The notes: generated by a model from the letters alone, not told the origin. A DNA stretch of 64,000 nucleotides from Parcubacteria group bacterium (GCA_016188775.1 JACPHC010000006.1:618-64617), one strand, 5' to 3'; positions 3,822-48,735 are shown, counted from the first letter of the stretch. Made by a program: numbers and translations.

Positions 3822-3862
3822 CTTACTAAACTTAATTGGACGGCCGTTTAATTAGTTTAGTA
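3822..3862. promoter_or_regulatory. Copy 1 of a ~40-bp palindromic motif centred on GACGGCCGTC (CTTACTAAACTTAATTGGACGGCCGTTTAATTAGTTTAGTA)
   Basis: Seen directly. Two further copies lie at 30109-30149 and 48696-48735. The arms ACTAAAC/GTTTAGT are inverted repeats around a perfect GACGGCCGTC palindrome. Confidence 0.6.
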
Positions 3863-4011
3863 TGAATATCAATTGCTTAAGTTTAGAAAAGTTTATAAAT
3901 TAAAGAATTTACACCTTTAGCGACGATCGTAAATAAAAGTGTAAATTTCAAAAAATAAACGCATATAGAGCAATCAATGGGGAGTTGAACTCTCATAAAT
4001 TACTCTAAAAA

Positions 4012-4020
4012 TTATCCACA
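4012..4020. promoter_or_regulatory. Perfect DnaA-box consensus TTATCCACA upstream of the first gene of the T4SS-like cluster
   Basis: Exact 9-mer match. It is followed by TGTATAAT (-10-like) at 4047-4054. A single box has uncertain significance. Confidence 0.3.
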
Positions 4021-4111
4021 ATTTGTTTCTTGTTTAATTAAAATATTGTATAATACTGACACAACCGTGAATAATAATTTTTTCAACTCAAAAAAGAGGG
4101 TTATTTTGGGA

Positions 4112-5824
4112 ATGGTTTTTGTTATTTTATTTTTGGCGCTGATTGTTCCTTTAAAAACCGAGGCTTCTATATGGAATCCACTTGACAATCTTTTAGACGC
4201 TATCATAACTGCTATTGTTCAAATATCTAATTTTCTAGTTGGATGGATTCTCTATATTATTCTTACCCCATTAGGCATATTCGCCGGCTGGCTTCTTGAT
4301 CCGACACTGATCCCGATTATTAACAGCGATGTTGTGACAACCGGTTATAAAATCACTTTGGATTTAGCCAATATGTTTTTTGTTTTGATTATTATAGTTA
4401 TCGCGTTCGCGACAATTTTTCGAATTAAAAGTTATGGCGCGGAGAGTCTTTTACCGAACTTAATTATCACCGCGGTCCTAATTAATTTCAGTAAAGTGAT
4501 TGCCGGAGTGGTCATTGATTTTTCCAATGTTTTAACCTCTTTTTTCCTCGAGAGAATATCAAGCAATTCCAGCGGCGTCTCGGCATCAATCGCCAACGCT
4601 CTTAAAGCGGCGGCTCTTTTTCCCACAAATCTTCCATCGGGCACCGGATCAAGTTTAGCGGGCTGGTTGAATGTTCTGGGCGGAATAATAGTCACTTGGA
4701 TTTTCGCTTTAGTAACCATCGCCGTCTTTGCTTCTTTTGTAGTTTTATTATTTTCCAGGGTTTTTGCCTTATGGATGCTTCTGATCGGAGCGCCTTTGGC
4801 TTGGCTTTTTCGAATCTTGCCTAAAACCCAAAAATATTGGAATGATTGGTGGGAAAAATTAATCAGCTGGTCTTTTGTCGCTCCTGTTTTTTCTTTTTTT
4901 CTTTATTTAGCCCTTAAAACCAATCAAACCATGAAAGATGCGCTTGGAAATCCACTTACGGACAACACTGGAGCGGGCGCTGAATTATCAAAAACTAATC
5001 CTATGCTTGAGCCGACTTTTTTGCTCAATTACATAGTTTTAATAGGCCTTCTATTGTATGGCGTTAAAACTTCCAAAAAAATGGCCGATTATATGCCTCA
5101 AGCCTTGTCAGCCGGCTGGCAAAGCGCCAAGGGCGGTTTTAAAAAAGCCGCTGGCATAAAAAGCCTTCAAGAACGAGCTAAAGAATTTGGGGGGAAAGTT
5201 GGCGAAAAAACCTCGCAAATCGCTTCTCGTTTACCCGGGGCCGGTCTTGTTTTACCCAAAGCCGGGGAAATAAGAACTGCCAGAAAAATAGAAAAAGGAG
5301 CCAAAAAAACGGGAGAACAGGCCAAACAAGAAATGGATGTTATTAAAAAACGAGCTCGAGGAGCAGTGTTAACCAAGGAAGAACAAAAAATAGCCGATAA
5401 TCCTCAATATTTAGCAAAAACGGAACAAACAGCGTTAGAAAAACAAGCTCGAGGAGCAGTGATGACTCCGGAAGAACAAAAAACAGCTGCAAGGCTTGAT
5501 GCTGCTTACGCTACCAGCGATCTTGATTTTGGCCGTAATGTTATTGAACAAAAAGCAAAAAATATCGCCCAACGCAGCACTATTGGTCAAAGATTAAAAA
5601 TAAGAGCCAAAAGCGTAATACGCCCGTCGGGAATCCTTACACCCACTCCCACCGCTGATGAGGCCGCGCTTCTTTTAGCCACTTCGCATAAAACTTATAA
5701 AAAAGAGTTTGAAAAACGCAAAAAAATAAATCAATGGCCTTATTCTGAAGGACAAAAAACTGCAAAAGAAAAAGCTTTGGAATCACTGGAAGAGTATTTT
5801 AAACCGCCGCCAACTTCGCCATAA
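4112..5824 (+). CDS. Polytopic membrane protein resembling VirB6/TrbL/PrgH-like T4SS channel components, with a Lys-rich hydrophilic C-terminal domain
   Basis: It has about 6 or more predicted TM helices after a signal-like N-terminus, then a roughly 200-aa charged tail. The start at ATG 4112 is preferred because it is preceded by AAGAGGG (Shine-Dalgarno). The ORF-track start 4046 is the alternative. The family call rests on topology and context only. Confidence 0.4.
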   Translation: MVFVILFLALIVPLKTEASIWNPLDNLLDAIITAIVQISNFLVGWILYIILTPLGIFAGWLLDPTLIPIINSDVVTTGYKITLDLANMFFVLIIIVIAFATIFRIKSYGAESLLPNLIITAVLINFSKVIAGVVIDFSNVLTSFFLERISSNSSGVSASIANALKAAALFPTNLPSGTGSSLAGWLNVLGGIIVTWIFALVTIAVFASFVVLLFSRVFALWMLLIGAPLAWLFRILPKTQKYWNDWWEKLISWSFVAPVFSFFLYLALKTNQTMKDALGNPLTDNTGAGAELSKTNPMLEPTFLLNYIVLIGLLLYGVKTSKKMADYMPQALSAGWQSAKGGFKKAAGIKSLQERAKEFGGKVGEKTSQIASRLPGAGLVLPKAGEIRTARKIEKGAKKTGEQAKQEMDVIKKRARGAVLTKEEQKIADNPQYLAKTEQTALEKQARGAVMTPEEQKTAARLDAAYATSDLDFGRNVIEQKAKNIAQRSTIGQRLKIRAKSVIRPSGILTPTPTADEAALLLATSHKTYKKEFEKRKKINQWPYSEGQKTAKEKALESLEEYFKPPPTSP

Positions 5825-5852
5825 CAAAAATTATTAAAACTAACTACTAAAT

Positions 5853-6248
5853 ATGCCAATACCAAACACAATTTACGGCTTAAGTCATTTTTCCAGCGAC
5901 CAAATTAAAGCTTTGGCCCATGCCTTGGAGGCCGAGGAATTAAATCCGTACACTATTTACAAACAAAGACCGGACGCTCTGCCGGAACGGGAACTGGAAG
6001 ATGTTATAAAAAAAATGAGTCCGGAAGAAGCCTCGGACATTGTGCCGGACAGTTTTAGCGGAGAGAAAGGGATAGAAATAGTTTCTTCCCTGTCTCTGCG
6101 CCAACTTGAAAAAATAGGCTCGGATGGCGACCCGATTCTAAAAGAAACGATTAAAATCAGTCTGGAAAAAGCTATTGAAAAAAAACCGGGCGATTTCAAT
6201 CTTCAAAAAATTTTAAATTATATTAATAACAGCCCAGCCTGGCAATAA
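5853..6248 (+). CDS. Hypothetical acidic soluble protein
   Basis: 131-aa ORF with no recognisable motif. Confidence 0.45.
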   Translation: MPIPNTIYGLSHFSSDQIKALAHALEAEELNPYTIYKQRPDALPERELEDVIKKMSPEEASDIVPDSFSGEKGIEIVSSLSLRQLEKIGSDGDPILKETIKISLEKAIEKKPGDFNLQKILNYINNSPAWQ

Positions 6249-6278
6249 AACTATGCCTATCCAAAAACTCAACCAACT

Positions 6279-6369
6279 GTCATTGCGAGGAGCGGAGCGA
6301 CGAAACAATCTAATAAATATTAGTTCAAATTATGGGATTGCCACGCTCCTTTCAGTCTCTCGCGATGAC
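6279..6369. repeat. Copy B of the family-1 miniature palindromic element
   Basis: CTGTCATTGCGAGGAGCGGAGCGACGAAACAATC ... GATTGCCACGCTCCTTTCAGTCTCTCGCGATGAC. Its right-half core is the reverse complement of the core of the third and fourth tandem units of copy A. Confidence 0.75.
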
Positions 6370-6400
6370 AAAAAAGTTTTCGAACGGACTAAATAAAACT

Positions 6401-7090
6401 ATGGAAGAATTAAAAAAATCCAATCCTTTAATAGCCGAGGAAGAAGAAATGGTTCCCAAACCATCCAAGGATCAAATTGTCTTATGGGAAGAATTGGAAA
6501 AAAGAGTGCCGGAGGAAAATGTCATTGTCTGGACCGAAGGATTCTACCAACTGCCCCAAAATATCCGCGATTATTTAGCTCGCGAAGATACGAGTTTAAA
6601 AATAAAAAATCTCGCCATAAATTTTAATTTCAATCAAGCCGAAACCCAATATTTAAACCGCCTGATTAACGGCTTTTTTATCGGCGCTATTAATCCCTCC
6701 AATTTCTTTGATTATCTCAAAAAGGGCTTTAAAAATTTAAAGGACGAGGAAGTCAAAAAATTAGCGGAAAATATCCGCGAGGCCATATTTCTGCCTCAAA
6801 GAGATTTTCTCCGTCAAAAACATAATTTGGAAGAAACTAAAACTTCTCAACCGGCTCCGGCGCCAAAACAATTGCCAATTGATCAAGATATTTATCGGGA
6901 ACCGGCCGACGAAGAGCCAAAAATCCCGCCTCAAGCCAACGGCGTGGTTTTTCTCTCCGATGACATAAAAATCAAACTGGATGATCCTCAACGTCTGAAA
7001 AAATTAGGCAAATTTTTAATTGATCTGGGTGAAAAAACTATTGAAAAAAAGAGGAAAAAAGACGCGGAAAACGAGATTTTTAAAATTTAA
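6401..7090 (+). CDS. Hypothetical Lys/Glu-rich soluble protein
   Basis: The ORF-track start at 6332 lies inside repeat copy B and is probably not used. In-frame ATGs at 6365 and 6401 are more plausible. Confidence 0.45.
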   Translation: MEELKKSNPLIAEEEEMVPKPSKDQIVLWEELEKRVPEENVIVWTEGFYQLPQNIRDYLAREDTSLKIKNLAINFNFNQAETQYLNRLINGFFIGAINPSNFFDYLKKGFKNLKDEEVKKLAENIREAIFLPQRDFLRQKHNLEETKTSQPAPAPKQLPIDQDIYREPADEEPKIPPQANGVVFLSDDIKIKLDDPQRLKKLGKFLIDLGEKTIEKKRKKDAENEIFKI

Positions 7091-7102
7091 TTTTTTATAA
7101 AT

Positions 7103-7573
7103 ATGGCGCATTCTCCAATAGACAAGGCGGCATTAGCGATTGCCCAGCGGATAGCTAATAAATTAAATAATTTAATTGAACAAGGCCATGATACAATAGC
7201 TTTTTTATTAGCTATTCTTTTAGCTTTTTTGAAAGACGGAATGGATGTGATTCTAGATTTGATGCTGATAGGAGAAATTCCAATTATTGGTCAAATGCCA
7301 GGAATTCTAATTTCCGCGATTTTAATGTATTTTTTATGGGGGAAAGGATGGTTTAATACGACAAAAGTAAAAATAATATTATGGGGACTTGGGGTTTTTG
7401 CTGATAATCTGCCTTTTTTGATAAATGATTTACCATTAACTGTCTTGACAGTTTTGATGGCTTGGCATGTTGTGCGTAAAAGAGCCAAAAAAGCCAAAAA
7501 AGATTTAGACAAATTAAGTAAAAAAACAATAAAAGAATTAGAACAAATTGATAAAGAATTAGAAACAGCTTAA
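7103..7573 (+). CDS. Small integral membrane protein (3-4 TM helices) with a Lys-rich C-terminus
   Basis: 156 aa, hydrophobic core. No family assignment is possible by eye. Confidence 0.45.
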   Translation: MAHSPIDKAALAIAQRIANKLNNLIEQGHDTIAFLLAILLAFLKDGMDVILDLMLIGEIPIIGQMPGILISAILMYFLWGKGWFNTTKVKIILWGLGVFADNLPFLINDLPLTVLTVLMAWHVVRKRAKKAKKDLDKLSKKTIKELEQIDKELETA

Positions 7574-7623
7574 TAAATATAGAGCGATTAATAAAAAAAT
7601 GATATAATAAAAAATACTAATCA

Positions 7624-8511
7624 ATGAGATTAGCTTTAAATCCAAAAATAAATTCAATGATTTTACCGGCGGTTAGCCTGCTGACCGTTTTAGGTATTGG
7701 TTTAATCGGTTTTGGTGTTTTTAAATCCGGCAATAAATTGGAAATAGAATTTAAAAACGGCCGGCTGACTCCTCAAAGCACCCAAAATATCAGCGAAATT
7801 TTTTCTCAAAATCTCAAAAAGGCGATTTCCCAAAACGTCGCTCCGGAAAAAATTTTTGAAAACACAAAGTTGAATTTCAAAAGCGACGAAACTTTAACCG
7901 CGCTTTTATCTCAAAATTTTCTTTCCGAAATAACCAAAAAAAATCCGGCCCAAATTCAAGATCCGTCTTTTATAGAAGCTCTTAAAGATTCATCTGATCC
8001 GGCAAGTTTTCTGGGAATCAGCGATTTAAATCCGGCTTTTGCCGATAAATCAAAAGAAATTATGAATTCATTGATTTACAACCCGCCGAGCTTTACTACC
8101 AAAAATAACGCCAGTTTGAAAGATAAAGTAAATTATTTCTCCGCTCTTAAAAATTTAATCTTGCCGTTTCAAAAAACAAACCCTTTAATTATCCAGGCAG
8201 CGCTGCAAACAAAAAATTACGCCGAACTGGATAGACGGATTGAAAAATTAAAAACCTCTCTCTTGAGCTTTGAAAAATTAGAAGCGCCGAAAGAATACAT
8301 CGATCTTCATAAAAAAATAATCAGTTTTAACGGCTATCAAATCAACGTTTTTGAAGAAATAAAAAAAGCCGGGGAAAATAACGATCCTTTAAAGCAATAT
8401 CTGATTATAATTTCTTACGATGAAATTTTAAATAATAATTATAAAACAACTATTTTAGAAACAATAAACGAAGCTAAAAAAATGATTAGCGAGATTAAGA
8501 AACTAAAATGA
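7624..8511 (+). CDS. Bitopic membrane protein, with an N-terminal TM helix and a ~250-aa extracytoplasmic domain. The topology is VirB8-like
   Basis: 295 aa with one TM helix near the N-terminus. The VirB8 comparison rests on topology and context only. Confidence 0.4.
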   Translation: MRLALNPKINSMILPAVSLLTVLGIGLIGFGVFKSGNKLEIEFKNGRLTPQSTQNISEIFSQNLKKAISQNVAPEKIFENTKLNFKSDETLTALLSQNFLSEITKKNPAQIQDPSFIEALKDSSDPASFLGISDLNPAFADKSKEIMNSLIYNPPSFTTKNNASLKDKVNYFSALKNLILPFQKTNPLIIQAALQTKNYAELDRRIEKLKTSLLSFEKLEAPKEYIDLHKKIISFNGYQINVFEEIKKAGENNDPLKQYLIIISYDEILNNNYKTTILETINEAKKMISEIKKLK

Positions 8512-10535
8512 AAAAACTCCTCACAATTATATTAATTTTTTCTCTCATCGTTTCTTCTTTTATTTTCAGCTTTCAAAAAACTTACGCTGGAGAACCTGTG
8601 ACCGATCCCCTCACTGAATTTATGACAGGTCTCACGTCTTTTGTAACAACTGTCTCGTCAATATATGACCAGATAGCTAACGAAGATAGCATTTTTGCCA
8701 CAGCGGCTAAATACGCATTATTGGTAGCTGGAACGCTTATTATGAACCAGATAACTAATGATATGATAAATTGGATTAACAACGGATTTGACGGCAAGCC
8801 GGGTTTTGTTCAAAATCCTGAAGGATTAATTAAAAAAGTCGGAGACCAAGCGGCCGGTTCTATTTTAACGACTCTGGCCGGCAATCAACTCTGCGAGCCG
8901 TTCAAATTAAATATTCAGATACCGTTGCAGGAAGTCTCGTCTTTTAACGATGAAGTTCAATGCACCCTCACGAAAATAGTTGAAAATATTGATTCTTTTT
9001 ATGACGATTTTTCAACCGGCGGCTGGCTCGCTTGGGTTCATTTAACCAAACCGCAAAATAACGCCATTAGCTCTTATTTAATGATCCAAGATGAATCGGC
9101 GCGCCAAGAGAGCAAATCCACAAAAAATACTTTTGACGAAATAAACCGCAATCAAGGATATTATTCCGTCAAAGAATGCAGCGCGAGCTTTGATTCTATA
9201 GATGTCCCCACCGGAGAAAAAAACGGAGTCAGAACGTTAACCGGTAAAACCCAAGAGAATATCTGGGATCAAGTCGCTAAAGCTGTCACTGATAGCGGCG
9301 GTGAAACGGTTTATCGCATAAAAGGTGAAATTCAATGTTCAACTAAAACTCCGGCGCAAGTTGTTTCAGGCACCTTAAATGAAACTATTACCGGAGGAAA
9401 TAAAATAATGCAACAATCAATATCCGATTTAACCGCGTCTTTAGGACTGCAAGGCAGTTTTTTTCAACCATTTATTACAGCGATGTTGAACGCCTTAATT
9501 AATAAAGGCGTTATGGAAGGATTGGCCGCGGCCCAAACAGCTTTAACCAACACGGAATCTTCGCCAATTAACTCTGTTCCCTCCGACGAAGCGGTTGATG
9601 ACTCTACTTTAGTAGACACAACCAGATCCGATATAGCCCAAGTTGAAAGCATTAAAAGATCCCTTAATCCGGGTTTAAAACAACAACTTTCATTAGTCTC
9701 TGACGCTTTAATTCCCGCAATTGATGTGGCCGGCCAAATTCAACAAACCGAAATTAATATATTAGAAACTGAAGGAAAAATGGCCGCTATAAACGAGGCT
9801 TTAGTTAAAGGCGGTCGAGCCGCGTCCTGCGTTTTTCCAACTGATACTACTGACAGAACAATTACCACTATTATAACTTCTACCAATGCCACTTATCCCA
9901 ATGCCACTGCTCTTGATGATAAAATGGCAAGAACTATAGACGTTAATGTTACTGACAGTAAATATGGAAAAGGAACGCCAGCTACAACTTTGCGTATTAT
10001 CACCGCCACTGCTCAAACAACCGATCTCTTCGGCAATACTTTTGTTAATGTAGGCGTCAATTCAGTGACAGCAATTTCGTCTCCTCAATATCAAACTCCT
10101 ATTGACGCTGCGCTTAGCAATTATACCACTGAAAAAACCAGCGCTGATAACGCTTTAAATAATATTGATCCGACAATGACTAGTCTTCAAATTTATTTAG
10201 ACAACGCTGATTCATTTATTGAAATTGGCAACGCCAATGTTCAAGCCGGGACCACAATTGCCCAATCTGACAAAGATACGCTCCAGCAAAATAAAGATAA
10301 TGCCCTTAATAGTCTAGCGCCGATTATAAGCCCAGAAACTGCCAATGATTTTTCCAGTTATAATTCAAAAATTTCCGATTTAAACGTGGAGACGTTTGAC
10401 CGCGCCGACAATATTAATCGCGAAGTCGGCTCATCCAGTTCAACCGATCCCCTAACTCTTTACGGACAATTAAACGACGCCAGCGGCGCTCTCGCTTCAA
10501 TTCAATCTTCTTACGCCGCTTGCGCCGCCTTTTAA
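8508..10535 (+). CDS. Large secreted Thr/Ser/Asn-rich protein, a candidate surface, adhesin or pilus-associated protein
   Basis: 675 aa with a cleavable-type signal peptide (MKKLLTIILIFSLIVSSFIFSFQKTYA). Its start overlaps the upstream stop by 4 nt, suggesting translational coupling. Confidence 0.5.
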   Translation: MKKLLTIILIFSLIVSSFIFSFQKTYAGEPVTDPLTEFMTGLTSFVTTVSSIYDQIANEDSIFATAAKYALLVAGTLIMNQITNDMINWINNGFDGKPGFVQNPEGLIKKVGDQAAGSILTTLAGNQLCEPFKLNIQIPLQEVSSFNDEVQCTLTKIVENIDSFYDDFSTGGWLAWVHLTKPQNNAISSYLMIQDESARQESKSTKNTFDEINRNQGYYSVKECSASFDSIDVPTGEKNGVRTLTGKTQENIWDQVAKAVTDSGGETVYRIKGEIQCSTKTPAQVVSGTLNETITGGNKIMQQSISDLTASLGLQGSFFQPFITAMLNALINKGVMEGLAAAQTALTNTESSPINSVPSDEAVDDSTLVDTTRSDIAQVESIKRSLNPGLKQQLSLVSDALIPAIDVAGQIQQTEINILETEGKMAAINEALVKGGRAASCVFPTDTTDRTITTIITSTNATYPNATALDDKMARTIDVNVTDSKYGKGTPATTLRIITATAQTTDLFGNTFVNVGVNSVTAISSPQYQTPIDAALSNYTTEKTSADNALNNIDPTMTSLQIYLDNADSFIEIGNANVQAGTTIAQSDKDTLQQNKDNALNSLAPIISPETANDFSSYNSKISDLNVETFDRADNINREVGSSSSTDPLTLYGQLNDASGALASIQSSYAACAAF

Positions 10536-10664
10536 ATTAGAAAATTAATCCCGTTAAAAATCGCGGATACGTAATTAAAATATGATATATATAAAAAATA
10601 AAATTTATAAATAATAAAATAGAGCCTCGGATGCTTTTTGCGCCCGCATTCTATTTTTAACGGG

Positions 10665-11387
10665 ATGAAAAAATTTTTTCTTACAATTTTCATTTCTTTG
10701 TTAATGCCTTTTTTAACATTGGCTATCGTAGCTAAATCAAAACCTCAACTTAATCAGCCGCTTCAAATCATTCTTTCTTGGACGGTTCCCTCTTCAATAC
10801 CTTCTCTTTACAAAGGCCGAGCCTTGCCGACTTTAAATTCATTTGTCCAAGTCAATGCCGATGCAATAAATGGAACGGATAAAAAAGAAAATCTCATCTT
10901 TAAATGGTTTGTTGATAACGACTATCAGCCTTTAGTTTCGGGCCGAAATAAAAATAATTTTAAATTTCAAATTAAAAAAGGGGTGGACGACCTTTATAAT
11001 ATCAAGCTGGAACTTCGCAAAACCGACTCCAGTCAAACGCTCTTGGCGACCAAAAATATTTTTATTCCCATCACCAATCCGGAAATTATCTTTTATAAAT
11101 TAAATAATGAAACGGCGATTAATAAAGAAATAAATATGTCCATTGGCCAATCTATTGATATAACAGCTGAACCTTATTTTTTCAACTCGCCGAAAGGAAA
11201 TTTAAAATATGAATGGACGATAAACGGAGGAAAAGCGAAAACGGAAAAACCGGATATTTTGAATTTAACGGCTCCGGAAGGAAAACTGCTCTCTCCGGTC
11301 TTAAAATCCATTGGGCTTAAAATCAGCAAAACCTTTTTTCCGGCCCAGCAAACGGAAGAATCTTTTAATTTAAAAATTTCCCAATGA
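10665..11387 (+). CDS. Secreted hypothetical protein
   Basis: Signal peptide MKKFFLTIFISLLMPFLTLAIVA. The start at ATG 10665 is preferred over the track start at 10638. Confidence 0.5.
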   Translation: MKKFFLTIFISLLMPFLTLAIVAKSKPQLNQPLQIILSWTVPSSIPSLYKGRALPTLNSFVQVNADAINGTDKKENLIFKWFVDNDYQPLVSGRNKNNFKFQIKKGVDDLYNIKLELRKTDSSQTLLATKNIFIPITNPEIIFYKLNNETAINKEINMSIGQSIDITAEPYFFNSPKGNLKYEWTINGGKAKTEKPDILNLTAPEGKLLSPVLKSIGLKISKTFFPAQQTEESFNLKISQ

Positions 11388-12271
11388 AAAAAATCATTAT
11401 TGTTGTTATATTTTTAGTTTTTTTCGTTAATTTAGCTCAAGCGGTTGAATTGACCTATCCGTCCGTTGGGCAAGGCATAACCACTCCCGCCGGCGCCACC
11501 AGCGATTTAGGAAATTATCTCGCATATGTTTACACTCTCGGCTTAGGCGCTTCCGGCATTGCCGCTTTGGCAATGATTGTCTGGAGCGGCATCAAATATA
11601 TGACTTCGGAAATTGTCACTTCCAAAGAAGAAGCGCGCAAAGATATTCAAGCCGCTCTTTTTGGACTGGCTTTGCTTCTGGGCGCTTATTTGATCTTAAA
11701 CACCATTAATCCTAATTTAGTCAGCTTAACTAATCCTGAGCTTGAAAGGCCGGCTGCGGTTCAAGGATATTGCGGCACGTCCGGACAAAAACAATCTGAA
11801 TTTACTCCGCCAAGTTGTTGCTCTGGCTATCAATCTGATAATGAAGGTATATGTAGATACGTCGGTCTAACTGAAGGCAGCGCTTGCCCTGCCACGATAA
11901 CAAACGGCGTTAACTGCTCAAGCGACCAGGTTTGCTCTAATAACAAATGCAAAGTTAAAGCATCATTCAATGAAACCTGCAGCGATGTGAAAAATAGTTC
12001 AGATTGCCTTTCAGGCCTCACCTGCATATCAACAGGGATAATTGGCGGTAATTGTCATAAGCCAACGGGCCAAAGAGTCGAAAGCGAATATTGCGGAGAT
12101 AATATTAATAGTTGCGGTTCCGGATTAAAATGTTCTGCCGGTATTTGCGTGGTCAGTACTTCTACCACAGCAAAAACAACTAACGAAGCCTGCACCAGTG
12201 GTCCTGAATGCCAAAGCAATCGATGCGAATACCCTGATAGCAGATCAACTAGTAGAACGTGCCAACCTTAA
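11384..12271 (+). CDS. VirB2/TrbC-like T4SS pilin domain (signal peptide plus two hydrophobic helices) fused to a ~180-aa Cys-rich C-terminal extension
   Basis: Signal MKKIIIVVIFLVFFVNLAQA. Helix 1 is LGASGIAALAMIVWSGIKYM, followed by a polar turn TSEIVTSKEEARKDIQ, then helix 2 AALFGLALLLGAYLILNTINP. The C-terminus has four C-x(5-7)-C-x-SG-x-C-x(3-8)-C-like modules. Confidence 0.5.
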   Translation: MKKIIIVVIFLVFFVNLAQAVELTYPSVGQGITTPAGATSDLGNYLAYVYTLGLGASGIAALAMIVWSGIKYMTSEIVTSKEEARKDIQAALFGLALLLGAYLILNTINPNLVSLTNPELERPAAVQGYCGTSGQKQSEFTPPSCCSGYQSDNEGICRYVGLTEGSACPATITNGVNCSSDQVCSNNKCKVKASFNETCSDVKNSSDCLSGLTCISTGIIGGNCHKPTGQRVESEYCGDNINSCGSGLKCSAGICVVSTSTTAKTTNEACTSGPECQSNRCEYPDSRSTSRTCQP

Positions 12272-12277
12272 TAGACT

Positions 12278-12676: not shown

Positions 12677-12798
12677 ATTTTGACAATTTGTTATTTAAAT
12701 TAAAATTAAAGTATGGCACCCGCCTTCGCTAAAAGCTTCGGCGGATGCTCATAATTGTAGCGAAATTTATTTCGCTATAATTATAAATTTCGACAATT

Positions 12799-25675: not shown

Positions 25676-25678
25676 TTT

Positions 25679-40104: not shown

Positions 40105-40124
40105 GAATTGTTATCATTTTAAAT

Positions 40125-40562: not shown

Positions 40563-40565
40563 ATA

Positions 40566-40967: not shown

Positions 40968-41186
40968 AATTATACATAATAATCCGAATATTATTTACAT
41001 TATTTAAAGAAATGGATACCTATTCGCGGAACCGCTGTCGGCTCGCTCCTGCGGCTCGCCGCAGCTTAACTCTCGGCGTCAAAACTTTTGCTTCGCAAAA
41101 GACCAATCTTTTGACGCCTCCGAGATATTCCGCTTGATAGGCATCCATTTCTTTGGATTAATTTTTAAAAATTAATTTCTATAAAT

Positions 41187-43616
41187 ATGGAAAACGGTAA
41201 ATTAGAAAGAAAAATTTTTAAAGTCAGGGGCATGCATTGCGCCGCCTGCAAAAATTTGATTGAAAAAATTATTTCCAAACAGCCGGGCGTGAAACAGGCC
41301 GAGGCGAATTTCGGTTCGGAATCGTTGAACATCGCTTACGATCCGACTCAATCGACGCCGGAAAAAATGAACGCGCTTTTATCAAAAGCCGGCTATTCTT
41401 TAATTATAGCAGACGAAGAAGCGAAAAGCGAAGAGCTTTTTGAAAAGGAGCATGAGGCGGAAATTCAAAGCCTGAAAAAACGGACCATTATCAGTTTTAT
41501 TTTAGCCTCGCCGATCATTCTCTATTATATGTATGTTCATATGTTCAATGTCGAACATATCCACGCTTTTTGCTGGGGAGGCGGAGGGCTGATTGAGGGA
41601 TTAAAAACAGGCTGTTTGGGAGGCTCTTTGATTGATCTTAACTGGATTTTCTTTTTGTTGACCACGCCGATTCAGTTGGGCGTGGGCTGGATTTTTTATC
41701 GGAATTCCTGGACCGCCATTCGGGTTGGATCGGCTTCAATGGATGTTTTGGTGGCGCTGGGCACCAGCGCGGCTTACGCGATTTCCGCTGTCGGATTTCT
41801 TTTTTCCGATATTGCTTTTTTGAATCAATATTGGCAGGGATTGGATCATCCGTTTTGGGAGTCGTCAGCCGCTCTTCTTTCTTTTATCATTTTAGGCCGG
41901 TATTTTGAGGCTCGGTCAAAAGGCCAAGTGACTTCGGCGATCAGAAAATTGATGAATTTGGCGCCAAAAACAGCGATTGTCGTCAGGGACGGGAAAGAGA
42001 TTGAAATTCCGATTAAAGATATTCAAATAGGCGATGTGTTTTTAGTAAAACCCGGGGCCAATGTGCCGACCGATGGCGTTATTATGGAAGGCGAGTCGTC
42101 CATTGACGAGAAAGTCGTTACCGGCGAATCAATGCCGGTTGGAAAAAAAGCCGGCGATCAAGTCATCGGCGCGACTAATAACACTTACGGATTTTTGAAA
42201 TGCAGAGCCGTTAAGGTCGGCCAAGACACGCTTCTTTTTCAAATTATTAAAATGGTGCGCGAGGCCCAATCTTCAAAAGCCGAGATTCAGGACGTGGCCG
42301 ATCAAGTTTCGGAAAGATTTGTGCCGATCGCCATTATTATTTCTCTTTTAGCTTTTTCATTTTGGTATTTTGTTATGGGATTGGAAGTAATCCCGTCGCT
42401 TTTATTTATGATCGCGGTTTTAGTGATTTCTTGTCCTTGCGCTTTGGGGCTGGCCACGCCCACGGCTTTAATGGTCGGCACGGCTCGGGGCGCCCAGTTC
42501 GGCATTTTAATCAAAGGAGCGCAGGCCTTAGAAAATTCTTATAAAATTAACGCCGTGGCTTTTGATAAAACCGGAACCTTGACCAAAGGTAAACCGGCGG
42601 TCACCGATGTTATTCCAATTGGCAATATGACGCGCGAAGAAGTTTTAAGAATCGCCGCCATTGCCGAGCGGGGCTCGGAGCATCCATTGGCCAAAACCAT
42701 CGTGGCAGCGGCTGAAAATCCTCCTGAGCCGAAAAAGCTTGTCGCTTTGGGCGGCCGAGGGATAGAAGCGGAATATGAAGGCAAACAGATTTTGGTTGGC
42801 AATGAAGTTTTAATGGATGAGCGCGGCATTAATATTTCGTCTTATCAAAAAGATTATGAAAAACTTCAAGACGAAGCTAAAACCGTTGTTTTCGCGGTTT
42901 ATGACGGTCGGCCGATTGGCATTATCGCTTTGGCCGACACTTTGAAAGATTATGTTAAAGAGGCGATCACTGAACTTAAAAAAATGAAAAAAGAGGTAAT
43001 GATGATCACCGGCGATAATGAAAAAACCGCCAAAGCCATCGCCGCCAGTCTTGGCATTGACGCGTATTTTGCCAAAGTTTTGCCGGAGAAAAAAGAGGAG
43101 CTGATTGCCAATCTTCAGCAAAAAGGGAAAATTGTGGCTATGGTCGGCGACGGTATCAATGACGCGCCGGCTTTGGCTAAAGCCAATCTTGGCATCGCGG
43201 TCGGGTCCGGCACGGATGTGGCGATTGAAACCGGCGATATAATTTTGATTAAAGACGATCTTCGGGACGTGGTGACGGCCATTGATCTTTCCCGCCGAAC
43301 TATTGTAAAAATCTGGCAAAATTTTTTCTGGGCCTTTGTTTACAATATCGTGGCCATTCCGATCGCGGCCGGGTTTCATCTTTTAATAACCCAAACCGCG
43401 GGTCAAGCCTCGCCTTGGGTGGTCGGCTTTGCTCAAACTCTTCATTCTTTCCTGGGGCCGACAGTCTCGCAGATATTTTTAAATCTTTCCCAATCGTCTT
43501 TGAGGCCGGAAATCGCCGGTTTTGCCATGGCCTTTTCATCGGTTTCAGTCGTCACTAATTCGCTTTTATTAAATCGCTACAAAGAGCCGAAATTCGCGAG
43601 AGTGGAAAATAAATAG
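41187..43616 (+). CDS. copA: Copper-translocating P1B-type ATPase
   Basis: N-terminal HMA domain GMHCAACKN, the CPC motif, DKTGTLT, and GDGINDAPAL. Confidence 0.9.
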   Translation: MENGKLERKIFKVRGMHCAACKNLIEKIISKQPGVKQAEANFGSESLNIAYDPTQSTPEKMNALLSKAGYSLIIADEEAKSEELFEKEHEAEIQSLKKRTIISFILASPIILYYMYVHMFNVEHIHAFCWGGGGLIEGLKTGCLGGSLIDLNWIFFLLTTPIQLGVGWIFYRNSWTAIRVGSASMDVLVALGTSAAYAISAVGFLFSDIAFLNQYWQGLDHPFWESSAALLSFIILGRYFEARSKGQVTSAIRKLMNLAPKTAIVVRDGKEIEIPIKDIQIGDVFLVKPGANVPTDGVIMEGESSIDEKVVTGESMPVGKKAGDQVIGATNNTYGFLKCRAVKVGQDTLLFQIIKMVREAQSSKAEIQDVADQVSERFVPIAIIISLLAFSFWYFVMGLEVIPSLLFMIAVLVISCPCALGLATPTALMVGTARGAQFGILIKGAQALENSYKINAVAFDKTGTLTKGKPAVTDVIPIGNMTREEVLRIAAIAERGSEHPLAKTIVAAAENPPEPKKLVALGGRGIEAEYEGKQILVGNEVLMDERGINISSYQKDYEKLQDEAKTVVFAVYDGRPIGIIALADTLKDYVKEAITELKKMKKEVMMITGDNEKTAKAIAASLGIDAYFAKVLPEKKEELIANLQQKGKIVAMVGDGINDAPALAKANLGIAVGSGTDVAIETGDIILIKDDLRDVVTAIDLSRRTIVKIWQNFFWAFVYNIVAIPIAAGFHLLITQTAGQASPWVVGFAQTLHSFLGPTVSQIFLNLSQSSLRPEIAGFAMAFSSVSVVTNSLLLNRYKEPKFARVENK

Positions 43617-43619
43617 CAT

Positions 43620-44732
43620 ATGCTTCATCAACTCTCAGATAAAAAACTTTATCTCGCTAGCGTTTTAGCCACTAGCGTTATCTCCGCCACGGTTTTATTT
43701 TCTCAATCTCCTTCATCTAAACCTTTTCGCAATATCGAAGATTTTATTCTCTTTGGCAAAGAAGGTATTCACTTGGCTGAAGATGTCCAGAGTTTAAGCG
43801 GTAATATTGGTTCAGACAAAATTATAGAAATTCAAGAAAGATCAAAGATAATCGGCCATCTTTTTTCTCAAGAGATTAAATTAGCTGAAAATACGGAAAT
43901 AGATGGCAATATCATCACTCAACAATTAGAACAAACTCCAACAACTAAAATACTTGGCACCACATCAAAAGAAATAACTTTTCCCGTAGCTAAGATTCCA
44001 GATATTCCTGATTTTCAAATAGGCGTCCAAGATATTGAAATAACTCAAAAAGATTTTATTCTCCCAGCCGGATTGTTTCGCGATATCAAAGTCAAAGAAA
44101 ATGCCAGCCTGATTATGGCTGGCATTTATAATTTTCGCTCTCTTCGCGCTGATGACAACAGCGCTATTCTTTTTGATGGTCCAATTACAATCAATATTCA
44201 ATCCTCGTTTAGATTGGGTCAAGGTACCATTGTTACTCCTAAACTTTCTAACCTTTCTGTAAAAGAAATTAAAATCAATTTTACCGGCACTGAAACAATT
44301 CAGATTGGTAATCGTTTTATTTTAGGTTTTCGACTTGTGGCTCCCAATACAAGCGTAGATGTTGGCGAAGAAGCGCTTTGGCGAGGCTCAATTTGGGCAA
44401 GGGAGGTGAGGGTAGGAGAAAATTCTTTGATAAGCAAAGAAGATAGTTTTGAGAAAGAAAGCGATTTAACAAAAGTTATTGAGGATCAAGGATTGAAATT
44501 TATTAGTAATGAAATTTTGATTCTTTTTAAAAACGAAGCAACACAATTTGATATTCAACAAGTTGTTAATTTAATAAACGGTAAAGTAGTTGGATTTATT
44601 CCTAATCCGCTCATTGTTAAAATAGAGGTACCAATTCTTACTATTCAAGACTTAAATGATAAAATTCAACTAATTAAAAATTCAAATAATCCGTTGATTG
44701 TGGAAGTTATACAAAATTTAATTGGTAGATAA
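43620..44732 (+). CDS. Membrane-anchored hypothetical protein
   Basis: 370 aa with an N-terminal TM helix. Confidence 0.4.
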   Translation: MLHQLSDKKLYLASVLATSVISATVLFSQSPSSKPFRNIEDFILFGKEGIHLAEDVQSLSGNIGSDKIIEIQERSKIIGHLFSQEIKLAENTEIDGNIITQQLEQTPTTKILGTTSKEITFPVAKIPDIPDFQIGVQDIEITQKDFILPAGLFRDIKVKENASLIMAGIYNFRSLRADDNSAILFDGPITINIQSSFRLGQGTIVTPKLSNLSVKEIKINFTGTETIQIGNRFILGFRLVAPNTSVDVGEEALWRGSIWAREVRVGENSLISKEDSFEKESDLTKVIEDQGLKFISNEILILFKNEATQFDIQQVVNLINGKVVGFIPNPLIVKIEVPILTIQDLNDKIQLIKNSNNPLIVEVIQNLIGR

Positions 44733-45033
44733 ATTTATGGAGAAGAAATACCTTTTAATGTCGATTATTATTAATATTTTCTATTGGCTTATTATTTTAT
44801 TTGATATTATTGGAGATAAATACAATATTAGTAATATTTCAACTTTTGTCTCTATTTTTATAGTCTGGATTATATTTGTATTATTTATATTAATACCATT
44901 ACTAATAATTGTTGGTTTCATCTACATTTTTTTTTCTAAAAACAAAAAAATTGTTTTGTTGGGATTATTAATTAATTTAATTACCGTTAGTTTTTTAATT
45001 TTTTCATTATTCACTCTCCAGGTTCGAAGATAA
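44722..45033 (+). CDS. Small membrane protein
   Basis: 103 aa with 3 TM helices. Confidence 0.35.
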   Translation: MVDKFMEKKYLLMSIIINIFYWLIILFDIIGDKYNISNISTFVSIFIVWIIFVLFILIPLLIIVGFIYIFFSKNKKIVLLGLLINLITVSFLIFSLFTLQVRR

Positions 45034-45037
45034 AAAT

Positions 45038-46558
45038 ATGAAAAGATATTTTCAAAAATTGATATTTCCAATTATTATAATGCAATTATTAACTGCTTAT
45101 CCTATTTTTGCTCAACAATTTATTTTAACAAAAGATTTTTTAAATCTTGAAAAAATCAATCCTAATTTATTCAGTTCTTACAAGAATATAAAAATAAGTG
45201 AAGCGTGGAATATAGTAGAAAGCATAAACCCAATTTTTATTCGGCCAATCAAAATTGGAATTATTGATTCGGGTATTGATGATAAGCATCCAGAATTTCA
45301 TAATGTGAATTTAGGAAATACACCCTTAAGCGCTAAATTTGATCATGATCTACTTGGTCATGGGACTCAAATTTCTGGTATTATCGGCGCGAATAATATT
45401 TCGATAATATCTTCTCAAAATTATATAACTCCACAGATGAATGGTATTGTCAGTGGAATTAAAAATCTAGATTACGTTATCGAACATCGTTATGACGGCG
45501 GTCTTAATCTATTTAAAATTCTATTTAATATTTTTGAATTAGCAGCAATTGAGAATGTAGATGTTATTAATATTAGTTCGGCGGCTAGCCATTCTATATG
45601 TAATGCCATTTTATTAAATTCTGCGGAGGGCATATTTTTTGCAGCCATTGCCCCTTATATTCATACTTTATTTATTACAAGCGCCGGTGAAACCTTGCCT
45701 AACGTTTCTGACGCAGAATGTTTTCTTCCCGGCGCTTTAGGCGGTGGTTTATTATCATTATCCAATGTAATCAATGTTGGCGGTTTAGATTCCACGGTAA
45801 ATAATCGTTGGCCTAATTCGCCGTTTGGTTCAGCGGTTAATATATCTGCTCCGGCAGTTAATGTTTACGCTCCTCGTCCGCCACAAATAAGAGAATTAGA
45901 GGGGCAATATGATCAAAATTTCAGCGGCACCTCTGCTTCCGCTCCTATGGTCGCCGGTGTCGCTGCCATCCTTAAAGCTATTAAACCCGAATTAACTCCG
46001 AGTGAAATTAAAGATATTCTTCAAAAATCTGCCGATCCGATTATTACTGATAAACCTTTAGGCAGTGGCTGTTTTGATCCTAATAATAACCCTCAAGGAT
46101 TTAATGGCTGCAGATTGAACGCTTTAGAGGCGGTTTGTCATTTTAAAGTTTTAAACTGTCTTCGAGCTGGCAGCCCTTTAATTAGAAATTTGCCGTTAGG
46201 CTATATTACCACAGTGGCTGGAAGCGGTGGTTTTGGTCTTAGTTTAGAAGGGTTTAGTGGAGATGGAGGTCCAGCGATTGCCGCTCGTTTTTTTCAGCCA
46301 GTCGCTGTAGTTTTGGATAAATCAGGTAATCTTTTTGTCGCTGATTGGATAAATCATCGAATACGAAAAGTCGATGCTAAAACAGGCATAATTACCACAG
46401 TGGCTGGAAGCGGGAATACCGGTCAAAAAGGCGATAATGGTCCGGCCATAGAAGCGGAATTAGCAGGTCCTTTTGGAGTAGCTATTGATTCAGCGGGTAA
46501 TCTTTTTATTGCGGATACATTCAACCATCGTGTTCGTGCTGTCCGTTTAGTTCCATAA
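45038..46558 (+). CDS. Secreted subtilisin-like (S8) serine peptidase with C-terminal NHL repeats
   Basis: Asp is in IGIIDSGID, His in GHGTQISGIIGA, and Ser in GTSASAPMVAGVAAIL. The NHL-like repeats are NHRIRKVD and NHRVRAV. Confidence 0.7.
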   Translation: MKRYFQKLIFPIIIMQLLTAYPIFAQQFILTKDFLNLEKINPNLFSSYKNIKISEAWNIVESINPIFIRPIKIGIIDSGIDDKHPEFHNVNLGNTPLSAKFDHDLLGHGTQISGIIGANNISIISSQNYITPQMNGIVSGIKNLDYVIEHRYDGGLNLFKILFNIFELAAIENVDVINISSAASHSICNAILLNSAEGIFFAAIAPYIHTLFITSAGETLPNVSDAECFLPGALGGGLLSLSNVINVGGLDSTVNNRWPNSPFGSAVNISAPAVNVYAPRPPQIRELEGQYDQNFSGTSASAPMVAGVAAILKAIKPELTPSEIKDILQKSADPIITDKPLGSGCFDPNNNPQGFNGCRLNALEAVCHFKVLNCLRAGSPLIRNLPLGYITTVAGSGGFGLSLEGFSGDGGPAIAARFFQPVAVVLDKSGNLFVADWINHRIRKVDAKTGIITTVAGSGNTGQKGDNGPAIEAELAGPFGVAIDSAGNLFIADTFNHRVRAVRLVP

Positions 46559-46560
46559 AT

Positions 46561-47802
46561 ATGAAAATTATATTCAACAATTTTTATTCTCAATCACTTT
46601 TTCGGGCTTTATCGGCTCTAATCATAGCTATTCTTTTTATGCCTTTGGTATTTTTTCTCGGAGCAAGAAATGATCTTTTATTTCCAAAAGCGATTTATTT
46701 TGAAATTTTAGTCGAAGTCGCTTTAGCTGTTTTTATTAGTCTTATTTTAATTGATCGGCGTTTTTTTCCAAAAGCTAGTCATCTTACGGTTACGCTTTTT
46801 ATTTTTTTTATTTTTTTAACCTTATCGGCTATTTTTGGCGTTGATCCTTATCGAAGTTTTTTTGGCGATATTTTTCGGATGGAGGGTTTGATTACTCTTT
46901 ATCATTTTTTTATTTTTTTCTTAATTGTAAGTTCTCTTTTTAAAGTTAAACCCGATTTTATTTGGACATTATTAAAAATATCTTTTGGGGTTGGAATTTT
47001 GGCTGGATTGAGCGCGATAATTGAGCTAATGAGAAGAAAAGTGGAAATCAGCAGCTTTCGGGGCGGAGGATTGATTGGTAATCCAGCAGTTTTAAGCAGT
47101 TATCTTATTTTTATAATTTTTTTTGGAGGAATTTTAGCGTTTAAATCGAGAAATATCGCGGCGCGCTATTTCTTCGTCGTCGGTTCTCTTTTTTTGACCG
47201 CTATTTTATTTTTAACTCAAACTAGAGGCGCTTTCGTCGGATTTATTTCTGGAATAATCGCTACTCTCTTTTTTATTTTTTTATTTGAACCGCGAAAAAA
47301 GTTCGGTTTAATTGCCGGCGGAATTTTAATTGTTTTTTTTCTTGTCGGATTTTTGATTTTTATTAATCCCGATTCATTATTTGTTCAAAAAATTCCTCTA
47401 ATTAATCGCCTGACCAAGATTAATCGGGAGGATCCGACCACTAAAACGCGTCTTTTATCAATTAAAACTTCCTGGAACGCCATTAAAGAAAGGCCAATTT
47501 TGGGTTTTGGCCAAGAGCACTATGATTTTGCATATTTCCGACACTTTAATCTCGGTTTTACTTCTATTAGCGAATATTTTAATTTTGATCGATCGCACAA
47601 TAAACTTTTAGATATTGCGGTCATGAACGGCGTTCCGGCTTTGATTATTTATTTGACGCTTTTCTTCTTTATTTTTAAAATTATTTTTTCCGAGCGGTTC
47701 AAAAAAGAGGAATCGCCGGTTACGAGAAGTTTTTTTTCGGATTACCCATTGCTTATTTTGTTCAAAATTTATTTCTTTTTGACTCTCTGGTTGTTTATTT
47801 AA
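46561..47802 (+). CDS. O-antigen ligase (Wzy_C)-like polytopic membrane protein
   Basis: Multiple TM helices and the ...LTQTRGAFVGFISG... Wzy_C-like motif. Confidence 0.5.
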   Translation: MKIIFNNFYSQSLFRALSALIIAILFMPLVFFLGARNDLLFPKAIYFEILVEVALAVFISLILIDRRFFPKASHLTVTLFIFFIFLTLSAIFGVDPYRSFFGDIFRMEGLITLYHFFIFFLIVSSLFKVKPDFIWTLLKISFGVGILAGLSAIIELMRRKVEISSFRGGGLIGNPAVLSSYLIFIIFFGGILAFKSRNIAARYFFVVGSLFLTAILFLTQTRGAFVGFISGIIATLFFIFLFEPRKKFGLIAGGILIVFFLVGFLIFINPDSLFVQKIPLINRLTKINREDPTTKTRLLSIKTSWNAIKERPILGFGQEHYDFAYFRHFNLGFTSISEYFNFDRSHNKLLDIAVMNGVPALIIYLTLFFFIFKIIFSERFKKEESPVTRSFFSDYPLLILFKIYFFLTLWLFI

Positions 47803-48446
47803 TGTTTTTTTTATTTTTAGCTATTTTGGATAATTTTTATACGCCAAAAGCGGTCTCAAAAATAACCTCGATTAATTTATCTTTCGTCAGTTTTAAAACT
47901 TCCGCTATTTTTATTTTCATTTTTTTAATTATTACCGGCTTATTTATTTACAAATTTCACTGGCAACCTTTTTTAGCTTCTCTGGAAGCAGGCGGAAAAG
48001 CGCAGGGAGTAAAATATGTTAGTAAAGAAATGTTAGATTGGTATAAAAAAGCTTATGAGCGAAACACATATTTAAGCAGTCAAATTGCCGAAGATGTGGC
48101 TCAAAACACGATGAGTTTAGCCGAAGCCGGAATTTATGATGAACAGTTTTTTAAAGAATCCAGTCGAATTATCGAAGAAGCTTTTTTGAAAGAACCAAGC
48201 TATATTCGTTTAGGTATTCGAATTGAGAGAATTTATCTGTTATTATTTAATTACGACAAGAGTTATTTAGATCGAGCAGAAAAAATTTTAAATATTCTTA
48301 TAGCTGAAGCGCCGGCCTTTCCTTATCTTAAAAATGATTTAGGCAGGGTAAAACTCGCTAAAGGCGAAAACAAAGAGGCATTTGAATTTTTTCGCCAGTC
48401 AGCTGAACAGGCGCCGAATATTAATCTGGACTTAAAAATCCAGTGA
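47802..48446 (+). CDS. TM plus TPR-like domain protein, possibly the frameshifted C-terminal continuation of the O-antigen-ligase-like gene
   Basis: It starts exactly where the upstream ORF stops, next to a T8 homopolymer. Wzy_C proteins often carry C-terminal TPR extensions. Confidence 0.4.
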   Translation: MFFLFLAILDNFYTPKAVSKITSINLSFVSFKTSAIFIFIFLIITGLFIYKFHWQPFLASLEAGGKAQGVKYVSKEMLDWYKKAYERNTYLSSQIAEDVAQNTMSLAEAGIYDEQFFKESSRIIEEAFLKEPSYIRLGIRIERIYLLLFNYDKSYLDRAEKILNILIAEAPAFPYLKNDLGRVKLAKGENKEAFEFFRQSAEQAPNINLDLKIQ

Positions 48447-48461
48447 GGGTATAATTTAAAA

Positions 48462-48677
48462 ATGGTCAAAAAATTATTCACAATCGAAGGGATGCATTGC
48501 GGCGCTTGCGCCGCCGGCATTGAACTGATTCTTTCTAACACCGAAGGAATCAAATCCGTTAAAGCTGATTACGAAGGCAAAAAAGCCGAGGTGGAATACG
48601 ATGAGGCGAAATTGAGCGCGGATGATGTAATCAACGCCATCGCGGACGCCGGCTTTGGAGCGAAAGCCGTATCGTAA
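48462..48677 (+). CDS. copZ: Copper chaperone CopZ (HMA domain)
   Basis: 71 aa, GMHCGACAAGIE. Confidence 0.8.
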   Translation: MVKKLFTIEGMHCGACAAGIELILSNTEGIKSVKADYEGKKAEVEYDEAKLSADDVINAIADAGFGAKAVS

Positions 48678-48695
48678 AAAACTTTTCCAGCCACT

Positions 48696-48735
48696 CACTA
48701 AACTTATTTGACAGCCGTCTCAATAGCTTAGTAAG
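48696..48735. promoter_or_regulatory. Copy 3 of the GACGGCCGTC-family palindromic motif (ACTAAACTTATTTGACAGCCGTCTCAATAGCTTAGTAAG), lying between convergent copZ and uvrB
   Basis: The reverse complement aligns with copies 1 and 2. Here the centre reads GACAGCCGTC. Confidence 0.5.

Follow-up and report, generated by a model that had tools for sequence, protein, structure and literature searches.

Repetitive extragenic palindromes (REPs), as described by Di Nocera et al. (2013, PMC3733652), measure 20 to 40 bp, and those located between convergent genes have the stop codons of both genes <20 bp away. According to the same work, the termini of these elements supply stop codons, G-T pairs are frequent, and intragenic copies are found preferentially in uvrA/B/C, polA, and other repair genes. 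What defines the REP superfamilies is a tetranucleotide tag, GTAG or CGTC, that stands unpaired at one end of the stem-loop, and the CGTC-type REPs, which include RPE-4 and RPE-6 of Rickettsia, have no dedicated transposase (PMC3733652). Here, we describe a family of ~40-bp palindromes that is represented three times in a 64,000-nucleotide stretch of DNA (the window) from a Parcubacteria group bacterium (GCA_016188775.1, JACPHC010000006.1:618-64617) and that recurs in other bacteria of the candidate phyla radiation (CPR).

The genomes of CPR bacteria, or Patescibacteria, are very small, and few mobile elements are believed to be present in them. We know of no catalogue of short dispersed palindromic repeats for this group. 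The family, which has not been described before, is filed here under the general kind of short dispersed palindromic repeats that resemble REPs and Rickettsia palindromic elements (RPEs), yet outside both the GTAG and the CGTC superfamilies, because it lacks a one-sided unpaired tag, its stem is longer than that of any listed family, and no REP-associated tyrosine transposase (RAYT) was seen. The interpretation that we favor, with middling confidence, is that the palindrome is a REP- or RPE-like insertion element, recognized through its outer and central boxes by a putative trans-acting protein and spread horizontally among CPR bacteria.

A bipartite palindrome family

An alignment of 13 independent members defines a common layout, in which the left outer box ACTAAAC is followed by ~6 nt of A/T-rich sequence, a central GACGG/CCGTC (core GACGGCCGTC), another ~6 nt, and the right outer box GTTTAGT. 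The unit is ~36 to 42 bp long, and nothing is conserved outside it. Its invariant parts across the 13 members are the outer boxes and the central GACGG/CCGTC; the spacers between them (~6 nt, or 7 in two members) vary in sequence, rich in T in the left arm and in A in the right arm. A perfectly palindromic version, ACTAAACTTATTTGACGGCCGTCAAATAAGTTTAGT, occurs at one locus (L018). Because the left arm of this version, ACTAAACTTATTTGACGGCCGTC, is identical at L013, L018, and L024 and differs by 1 nt from the third copy of the window, the members look like decayed copies of one master sequence.

The first-pass annotation of this DNA had placed three ~40-bp palindromes with two-fold symmetry upstream of a type IV secretion system (T4SS)-like cluster, in a divergent gap next to tsaE, and in the convergent gap between copZ and uvrB. 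The three copies (c1, c2, and c3) and their gene contexts are as it described, with their ends now refined to the coordinates given in Table 1, and the symmetry is real in every one of them. The consensus palindrome that it proposed does reflect a real family, although the exact core GACGGCCGTC is present in c2 only. The left arm of c1 has 1 additional T, and c3 is the most divergent of the three. Chance does not account for these copies, as evidenced by dinucleotide shuffles of the window, in which a 41-nt degenerate consensus has 0.00 expected occurrences. A profile hidden Markov model built from family members matched the three copies with E values of ~1e-12 and found no further copy or half-copy in the 64-kb window, and a regular-expression scan matched all three on the + strand only. 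Sequence likeness stops at the ends of the palindrome: when c1 to c3 were aligned with their 60-nt flanks, the flanks proved unalignable, and so the copies are not parts of a longer mobile repeat, a possibility that the annotation had raised against its own proposal. A sequencing-adapter artifact was also rejected, given that the copies differ from one another, occur in independent assemblies (NCBI metagenome-assembled genomes [MAGs] and Logan), and in one case lie in frame within a gene. An identical UvrB is recorded on an NCBI contig, and the genome of the window was assembled in Logan run SRR12113424 as well.

Relatives were sought with an exact-pattern scan of 185,579 species genomes, which returned 21 stretches; its counts are lower bounds because diverged copies are missed. 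Candidatus Portnoybacteria STD1_185 (GCA_028717445.1) has four copies on three contigs (L009/L038; L012 and L013/L040; and L018), two of them 8.3 kb apart. Single copies occur in one Sungiibacteriota MAG (L017), in one Saccharibacteria MAG (L021, with the same sequence as L028), and in one further MAG (L004). The remaining species-genome matches are one-armed chance matches, for example, in coding sequence resembling UDP-glucose dehydrogenase. The same pattern in metagenomes returned seven stretches, of which four or five are true members, including those on contigs L024, L027, and L030. All hosts of the family appear to be CPR-type bacteria. The boxes are nearly identical across hosts, with GC contents of 35% to 48% at the metagenome loci and with MiaA proteins in two lineages only 39% identical. 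The distribution across the CPR is sporadic. A tolerant profile search (nhmmer) found 0 copies in ~52 kb of three Portnoybacteria relatives versus 4 in ~42 kb of STD1_185.

Several matches lie outside the family. A scan of viral genomes gave one match only (L002), which is not palindromic, and no meaningful BLAST match pointed to a phage or plasmid origin, which was rejected. A larger element with separated arms was likewise rejected, given that the left-arm match at L022 has no second arm to pair with and is part of a coding sequence. A distinct repeat, CGACGGCCGTCGCCGG, occurs twice around a TTCTTGACTGTCAAGAA palindrome at L026 (positions 900-1010; JGI Ga0209149_1116907); it shares only the GACGGCCGTC core and is probably unrelated to the family. 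In the family member at L030 (positions 1895-1949; JGI Ga0163210_1033492), the palindrome extends 8 nt farther on each side (GAGTGGCA...TGCCACTC) to form a perfect ~56-bp inverted repeat immediately after a PEBP-family gene.

In the 11 members used for hairpin pairing statistics, 84.5% of cells over 17 pairs are paired. Sliding the partner column lowers this to 27 to 46%. Pair 11-33, next to the outer box on its inner side, shows clean double changes (UA in 8 members, AU in 2, and CG in 1); 7 of 11 members leave the pair beside the core unpaired. A plausible model is a hairpin or cruciform in which an internal loop joins an outer helix of 8 to 9 bp to an inner helix capped by a GGCC loop, and the pairing data also fit a symmetric protein that reads two boxes per half-site. 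Fixed boxes with a free A/T middle are the pattern of conservation to be expected from a site bound by a symmetric protein, from a structured hairpin, or from both.

Presence and absence at orthologous junctions

Conservation in orthologous intergenic regions, which the first-pass annotation had suggested examining, fails at both of the junctions where it could be tested, copZ/uvrB and miaA/gatB. First, in the closest available relative of the window genome, whose UvrB is 74% identical, the gene order is unchanged and the copZ/uvrB gap is equally long, with no element in it; what it carries there is an unrelated hairpin (L031 2026-2082; TTTTGTCGCA...TGCGACAAAA) with an inner CGCTATAGCG palindrome. 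Second, miaA and gatB of STD1_185 are separated by a 91-bp gap that contains the element plus two ordinary GC-rich hairpins, whereas in two syntenic Portnoybacteria relatives (MiaA 68% and 64% identical) the ends of miaA and gatB overlap and the element is absent. A third Portnoybacteria relative has an ordinary terminator at this junction. The miaA reading frame of STD1_185 enters the element and terminates within it, such that the element overlaps the 3' end of the gene.

A third comparison comes from inside a gene. One of the 13 copies lies in frame in uvrC of STD1_185, where it encodes FFTTTKLFGRPSNKF (~15 aa) in a loop between IDGGKAQL and SLAKK, and two of the three frames on the uvrC sense strand are open through the element. 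Among 16 aligned homologues, 10 have no insert in this loop. In the closest homologue (73% identical), a stretch of about the same length keeps CTAAACTTAT and looks like a decayed copy. Another uvrC homologue (L034 221-1486; ENA ERZ27293393) has, in frame in this loop, a GC-rich palindrome of different sequence, GGCCCGCCCTCGGCCGAGCCGAGGCGAGGCC, with the direct repeat GAAATTGGAAATT on its flanks. The loop seems to act as a hot spot where small palindromes insert into uvrC of CPR bacteria. Because the copZ/uvrB, miaA/gatB, and uvrC comparisons, taken together, indicate a unit that is gained or lost at orthologous positions and tolerated within coding sequence, its behavior reads as that of an insertion element and not as that of an ancestral regulatory or structural site.

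In the mechanism that we propose, copies would arise by insertion, through copy-and-paste or gene conversion, catalyzed in trans by a putative protein that would recognize the outer and central boxes, probably on hairpin or cruciform DNA. The family would spread horizontally among CPR bacteria, and an inserted copy would be largely neutral. As an RNA hairpin, a copy may secondarily affect transcript 3' ends or stability, for instance, in the uvrB/copZ gap, where it is the sole hairpin.

A number of observations weigh against insertion by such a mechanism. The flanks show no evident target-site duplication, and no transposase or RAYT (Y1/HUH) gene was found in the window or in any copy-bearing locus, L038 and L040 included. 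The canonical unpaired GTAG or CGTC end tag of the REP superfamilies is absent. Copy number looks low, with 3 copies in the 64-kb window, 4 exact-pattern matches in the whole STD1_185 assembly, and 1 in each of the other genomes. Support for the hairpin is modest, the covariation score being 0.138 versus 0.098 in shuffles, 22 of 500 of which reach 0.138, and about half of the members lack pairing at three mid-stem positions. Also, insertion is deduced from relatives at 64 to 74% protein identity rather than from an empty site at >95% identity. Finally, the boxes are nearly identical across CPR classes, whereas REPs are normally species-specific, and this would fit a conserved site for a host protein too.

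According to this last idea, which we consider unlikely, the copies are sites on duplex DNA for a symmetric (dimeric, bipartite) host protein and function either as centromere-like or chromosome-organization sites near oriC, analogous to parS, or as the operators of a small regulon. Several features are as such sites would have them: within one genome, the boxes are invariant while the spacers are variable and often noncomplementary; copy number appears low; and the copies of the window lie at -14.7 kb (c1), +11.6 kb (c2), and +30 kb (c3) from dnaA, in an oriC region without canonical parS. The 8.3-kb spacing of two STD1_185 copies agrees with this, an intragenic position is normal for parS sites, and the symmetric lineage changes at pair 11-33 could reflect coevolution with a binding protein. 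Against it stand the absence of the element from syntenic relatives at both testable junctions and from the ~52 kb of Portnoybacteria DNA, the sporadic distribution across the CPR, and the uvrC copy, which looks like a ~42-bp insertion and not like a site that evolved in place. Moreover, no candidate binding protein or ParB is encoded beside any copy, the majority of copies lie at gene 3' ends, where an operator would not be expected, and dnaA was not seen in the ~42 kb of STD1_185 that holds four copies.

Gene contexts and RNA folding

The family favors gene ends, and gaps of any transcriptional orientation can hold copies. Seven of the 13 copies are ≤10 bp from a stop codon, mostly between convergent genes, and a majority lie 0 to 20 bp past stop codons or in convergent gaps. 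Two (c1 and c2) occupy divergent gaps, and one lies between rpoC and ftsK, 161 bp upstream of the latter. In two distant lineages (MiaA 39% identical), the element directly follows miaA (L009 3206-3248 and L017 3070-3112). A special link of the element to miaA was rejected, in view of the roughly one such coincidence expected among 26 neighbor slots and of syntenic relatives that lack the element; a target preference at miaA would be compatible with the data.

These positions bear on what the first-pass annotation had made of the palindrome. It had suggested a regulon operator, which finds no support when most copies are at gene 3' ends, one is inside uvrC, and one extends over the 3' end of miaA. 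A role as a control element of the T4SS-like cluster fares no better, as c1 is the only one of ~13 independent members near T4SS genes. Its broader proposal of a dimeric-protein site or a structured site agrees with the symmetry and the fixed boxes, apart from the operator and terminator roles, which the data do not support.

A location at gene ends would also suit a hairpin that acts at the RNA level, as a bidirectional terminator, an mRNA 3'-end stabilizer, or an RNase III-type processing site. In the window copies, every mismatch between the arms is a transition that becomes a G-T or G-U pair on one strand (+ for c1; - for c2 and c3), and because of this one strand of each copy folds much better than the other. 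The RNA fold of c1, whose two mismatches are G-T on the + strand, is -16.2 kcal/mol on the + strand versus -10.6 kcal/mol on the - strand. For c2, the values are -19.2 kcal/mol on the - strand and -10.4 kcal/mol on the + strand, and for c3, they are -17.0 kcal/mol on the - strand (uvrB sense) and -8.4 kcal/mol on the + strand. Fold z-scores on the better-folding strands are -4 to -5. In each case, the G-U strand is a plausible transcript, namely, the 5' leader of a T4SS-like gene (c1, + strand), the 5' leader of a 168-aa open reading frame (ORF) (c2, - strand), and the 3' untranslated region of uvrB (c3, - strand). The strand asymmetry is suggestive of a single-strand function, although it comprises very few events. 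In addition, c3 is the only hairpin of its gap, which in the 74%-identical relative is occupied by an ordinary hairpin.

Even so, we regard an RNA-level role as the primary function of the element as quite improbable. No U-tract follows the stem, a terminator scan finds nothing at the three sites of the window, and canonical GC-rich, U-tailed terminators stand beside the element at the miaA/gatB and pgm loci of STD1_185 (L038 and L040); an intrinsic (rho-independent) terminator was rejected on these grounds. Divergent gaps hold two of the three window copies, and another family member is inside uvrC. No Rfam family matched at gathering thresholds, with only noise at E values up to 10, and a generic hairpin role does not explain boxes that are invariant across phyla.

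The replication-origin region and known systems

The window (GC content, 38.8%) covers the replication-origin (oriC) region of a Parcubacteria-group MAG, and its cumulative GC skew has a minimum at 18 to 20 kb. The origin genes and the neighbors of the three copies are collected in Table 1.

Table 1. Palindrome copies and reference genes in the 64,000-nucleotide window
Feature	Position	Strand	Details
Copy c1	3824-3862	not assigned	Left box ACTAAAC 3825-3831; core GACGGCCGTT 3839-3848; right box GTTTAGT 3855-3861; full sequence CTTACTAAACTTAATTGGACGGCCGTTTAATTAGTTTAGTA
Copy c2	30110-30149	not assigned	Left box ACTAAAC 30112-30118; core GACGGCCGTC 30125-30134; right box GTTCAGT 30141-30147; full sequence TTACTAAACTAATTGGACGGCCGTCAAATCAGTTCAGTAA
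Copy c3	48694-48735	not assigned	Left box ACTAAAC 48697-48703; core GACAGCCGTC 48710-48719; right box GCTTAGT 48726-48732; full sequence CTCACTAAACTTATTTGACAGCCGTCTCAATAGCTTAGTAAG
Xer-type tyrosine recombinase	303-1193		Above NCBIfam XerA cutoff, below XerC/XerD cutoffs; 2.6 kb from c1
130-aa membrane-protein ORF	3195-3587	-	One side of c1 gap
592-aa membrane protein, first gene of T4SS-like cluster	4046-5824	+	Other side of c1 gap
jag (R3H), yidC, rnpA	16.6-18.3 kb (origin region 16570-21200)	-
dnaA	18503-19891	+
dnaN	20100-21200	+
Orphan 168-aa ORF	29546-30052	-	One side of c2 gap
tsaE (tsaE-polA)	start 30205		Other side of c2 gap
copZ-like 71-aa HMA gene	stop 48675-48677		One side of c3 gap
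uvrB	stop 48736-48738	-	Other side of c3 gap

Copy c1 lies in a divergent gap, 184 bp upstream of the 592-aa membrane-protein gene that opens the T4SS-like cluster. This cluster (4046-16580), which is of the Firmicutes/Tn916/integrative and conjugative element type and directly adjoins oriC, encodes a CD3337/EF1877-like membrane protein (a weak match), a pilin-like protein, a PrgI-like protein, and a CD1110-family VirB4 ATPase. Copy c2 occupies a divergent gap of 152 bp. The 168-aa ORF starts 57 bp away from the copy and tsaE 56 bp away, and a promoter-like site (30153-30181) is directly downstream of the copy. The only relatives of the 168-aa ORF are weak (E values of 1e-4 to 1e-5) and correspond to the C-terminal third of ~380-aa DHH-family phosphoesterases; the ORF may be the 3' remnant of a truncated gene, with c2 located where the missing 5' half would be. 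As a partner DNA-binding protein for c2, the product of this ORF was rejected, since it is an orphan that may be a gene remnant instead and its AlphaFold model (mean pLDDT, 44.6) is unusable. Copy c3 fills a 58-bp convergent gap, ~17 to 19 bp past the copZ-like stop codon and 1 bp from that of uvrB.

Other features of the region include a copper/redox neighborhood (33253-33660 and 38474-48677) with two cupredoxin-like proteins, a DsbD-like membrane protein, thioredoxin, DoxX, a CopA-type P-type ATPase (41187-43616), and the 71-aa HMA (copZ-like) protein. DNA-repair genes are dense around the origin: ruvC, yebC, and ruvB are clustered on the - strand at 24243-27492, ruvA (51905-52474) is 24 kb away beside a femAB-like gene, and uvrB, polA, fpg, and holA are also in the window. 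Gene tables of the other copy-bearing loci show no T4SS, Xer/integrase, or transposase genes, and only housekeeping families are common to them and the window.

The Xer-type recombinase gene near c1 raises the question of recombination sites, either dif-like sites for that Xer-like enzyme or very short attC-like sites that act when folded, and both seem to us highly improbable. A dif/Xer site is a single terminus site of 28 to 31 bp with two 11-bp arms and a spacer of 6 to 8 bp. The arms around the central CGGCCG do resemble this arm-spacer-arm layout, one member is upstream of ftsK, and each outer box agrees with the attC R''/R' consensus, RYYYAAC/GTTRRRY, in 6 of its 7 positions. Nevertheless, three co-oriented copies flank oriC, dnaA, and dnaN within 30 kb of dnaA, such that recombination between copies would delete essential genes; dif was rejected for this origin-proximal multiplicity, and the argument in the first-pass annotation that three copies speak against a single-copy dif site was sound. 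No Xer or integrase gene is near any other family member. As for attC, sites of this type are 57 to 141 bp long and form cassette arrays beside IntI, and neither holds here, with a 40-bp unit, copies 18 to 26 kb apart, and a recombinase that scores as Xer and below the integron-integrase cutoff.

Three further systems were considered and rejected. TIGR-Tas stem-loop guide RNAs (tigRNAs), which are common in the CPR, have palindromic stems, two spacers of ~9 to 10 nt, box C/D motifs, and an adjacent Nop-domain tas gene (bioRxiv 10.64898/2026.09.09.750476); the palindrome has only ~6 nt between stems and no C/D boxes, and the window has no Nop-domain gene. An SOS/LexA operator was prompted by uvrB, uvrC, polA, ruvABC, and rmuC among the neighbors. 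According to one report (PMC7739468), the LexA motif of Patescibacteria is a direct repeat; the unit described here is a palindrome, and its sites are at the 3' ends of genes or inside them. In a DNA uptake sequence or uptake signal sequence, hundreds to thousands of copies would be expected per genome, whereas the core 8-mers ACGGCCGT and ACTAAACT each occur 3 times on the + strand in 64 kb, essentially within the elements only. The core does resemble an inverted pair of the Neisseria GCCGTC motif.

In a further interpretation, to which we give little credence, the palindrome would be the recognition site of a putative, horizontally mobile CPR DNA-binding system, either a noncanonical centromere or chromosome-organization site near an oriC that lacks canonical parS or a new class of hairpin element moved by a non-RAYT recombinase. 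Under both versions, a 40-bp bipartite palindrome would have stayed almost the same across CPR classes.

A near-identical family in Parcubacteria-type bacteria, Portnoybacteria, Sungiibacteriota, and Saccharibacteria would mark the exchange of DNA among CPR lineages and would point to a trans-acting enzyme. The in-frame uvrC copy and the miaA extension show that the element can reshape proteins in minimal genomes. For annotation, the family is a warning that such palindromes are not to be read as operators of adjoining T4SS-like genes or as terminators.

Among known systems, parS shares with the family low-copy palindromes that are conserved across phyla and are both intra- and intergenic, as well as, in this window only, proximity to the origin. 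However, the palindrome is a 40-bp bipartite unit compared with the 16-bp TGTTNCACGTGAAACA and is absent from syntenic relatives. Canonical parS was rejected for the window, which has no match to that sequence with ≤2 mismatches, no parAB genes near the origin, and no ParB domain among its proteins. MITEs (miniature inverted-repeat transposable elements), such as Correia elements (CREE) and others that have terminal inverted repeats only, are likewise noncoding, short, essentially two inverted repeats, and intergenic, with occasional effects on transcription; in contrast to them, the palindrome has no target-site duplication and no parent insertion sequence with the same ends, and it is smaller than usual MITEs. 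RPEs are closer, being palindromes in small-genome, host-dependent bacteria that lie in frame in genes without destroying them and for which no transposase is known either. Most RPEs are 100 to 150 bp long and are confined to Rickettsia, whereas the palindrome is ~40 bp long, has CPR hosts, and has no sequence similarity to them.

REPs differ from the family in several respects. The stem is ~16 to 18 bp here versus 6 to 13 bp in REPs, the right end is GTAR (GTAG in 5 and GTAA in 4 of 13 members) and has a YYAC mirror image at the left end, which makes the motif two-sided and largely paired, and CGTC is central and not terminal. Copy number appears low compared with the hundreds of copies of classical REPs, no RAYT was seen in the window or at L038/L040, and the sequence is nearly identical across CPR classes. 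In other respects, the two are alike. Both are imperfect palindromes of 20 to 40 bp that can form a stem-loop and are dispersed in copies, and in both G-T pairs are frequent and the termini can provide stop codons (TAG or TAA in the palindrome). The outer stem, the mismatches, and the inner GC-rich pairing of GRCG/CGYC type are arranged as in the enterobacterial GTAG-3 family. Finally, the palindromes, like REPs, lie mostly downstream of ORFs and near stop codons, and they have an in-frame copy in an excision-repair gene, uvrC.

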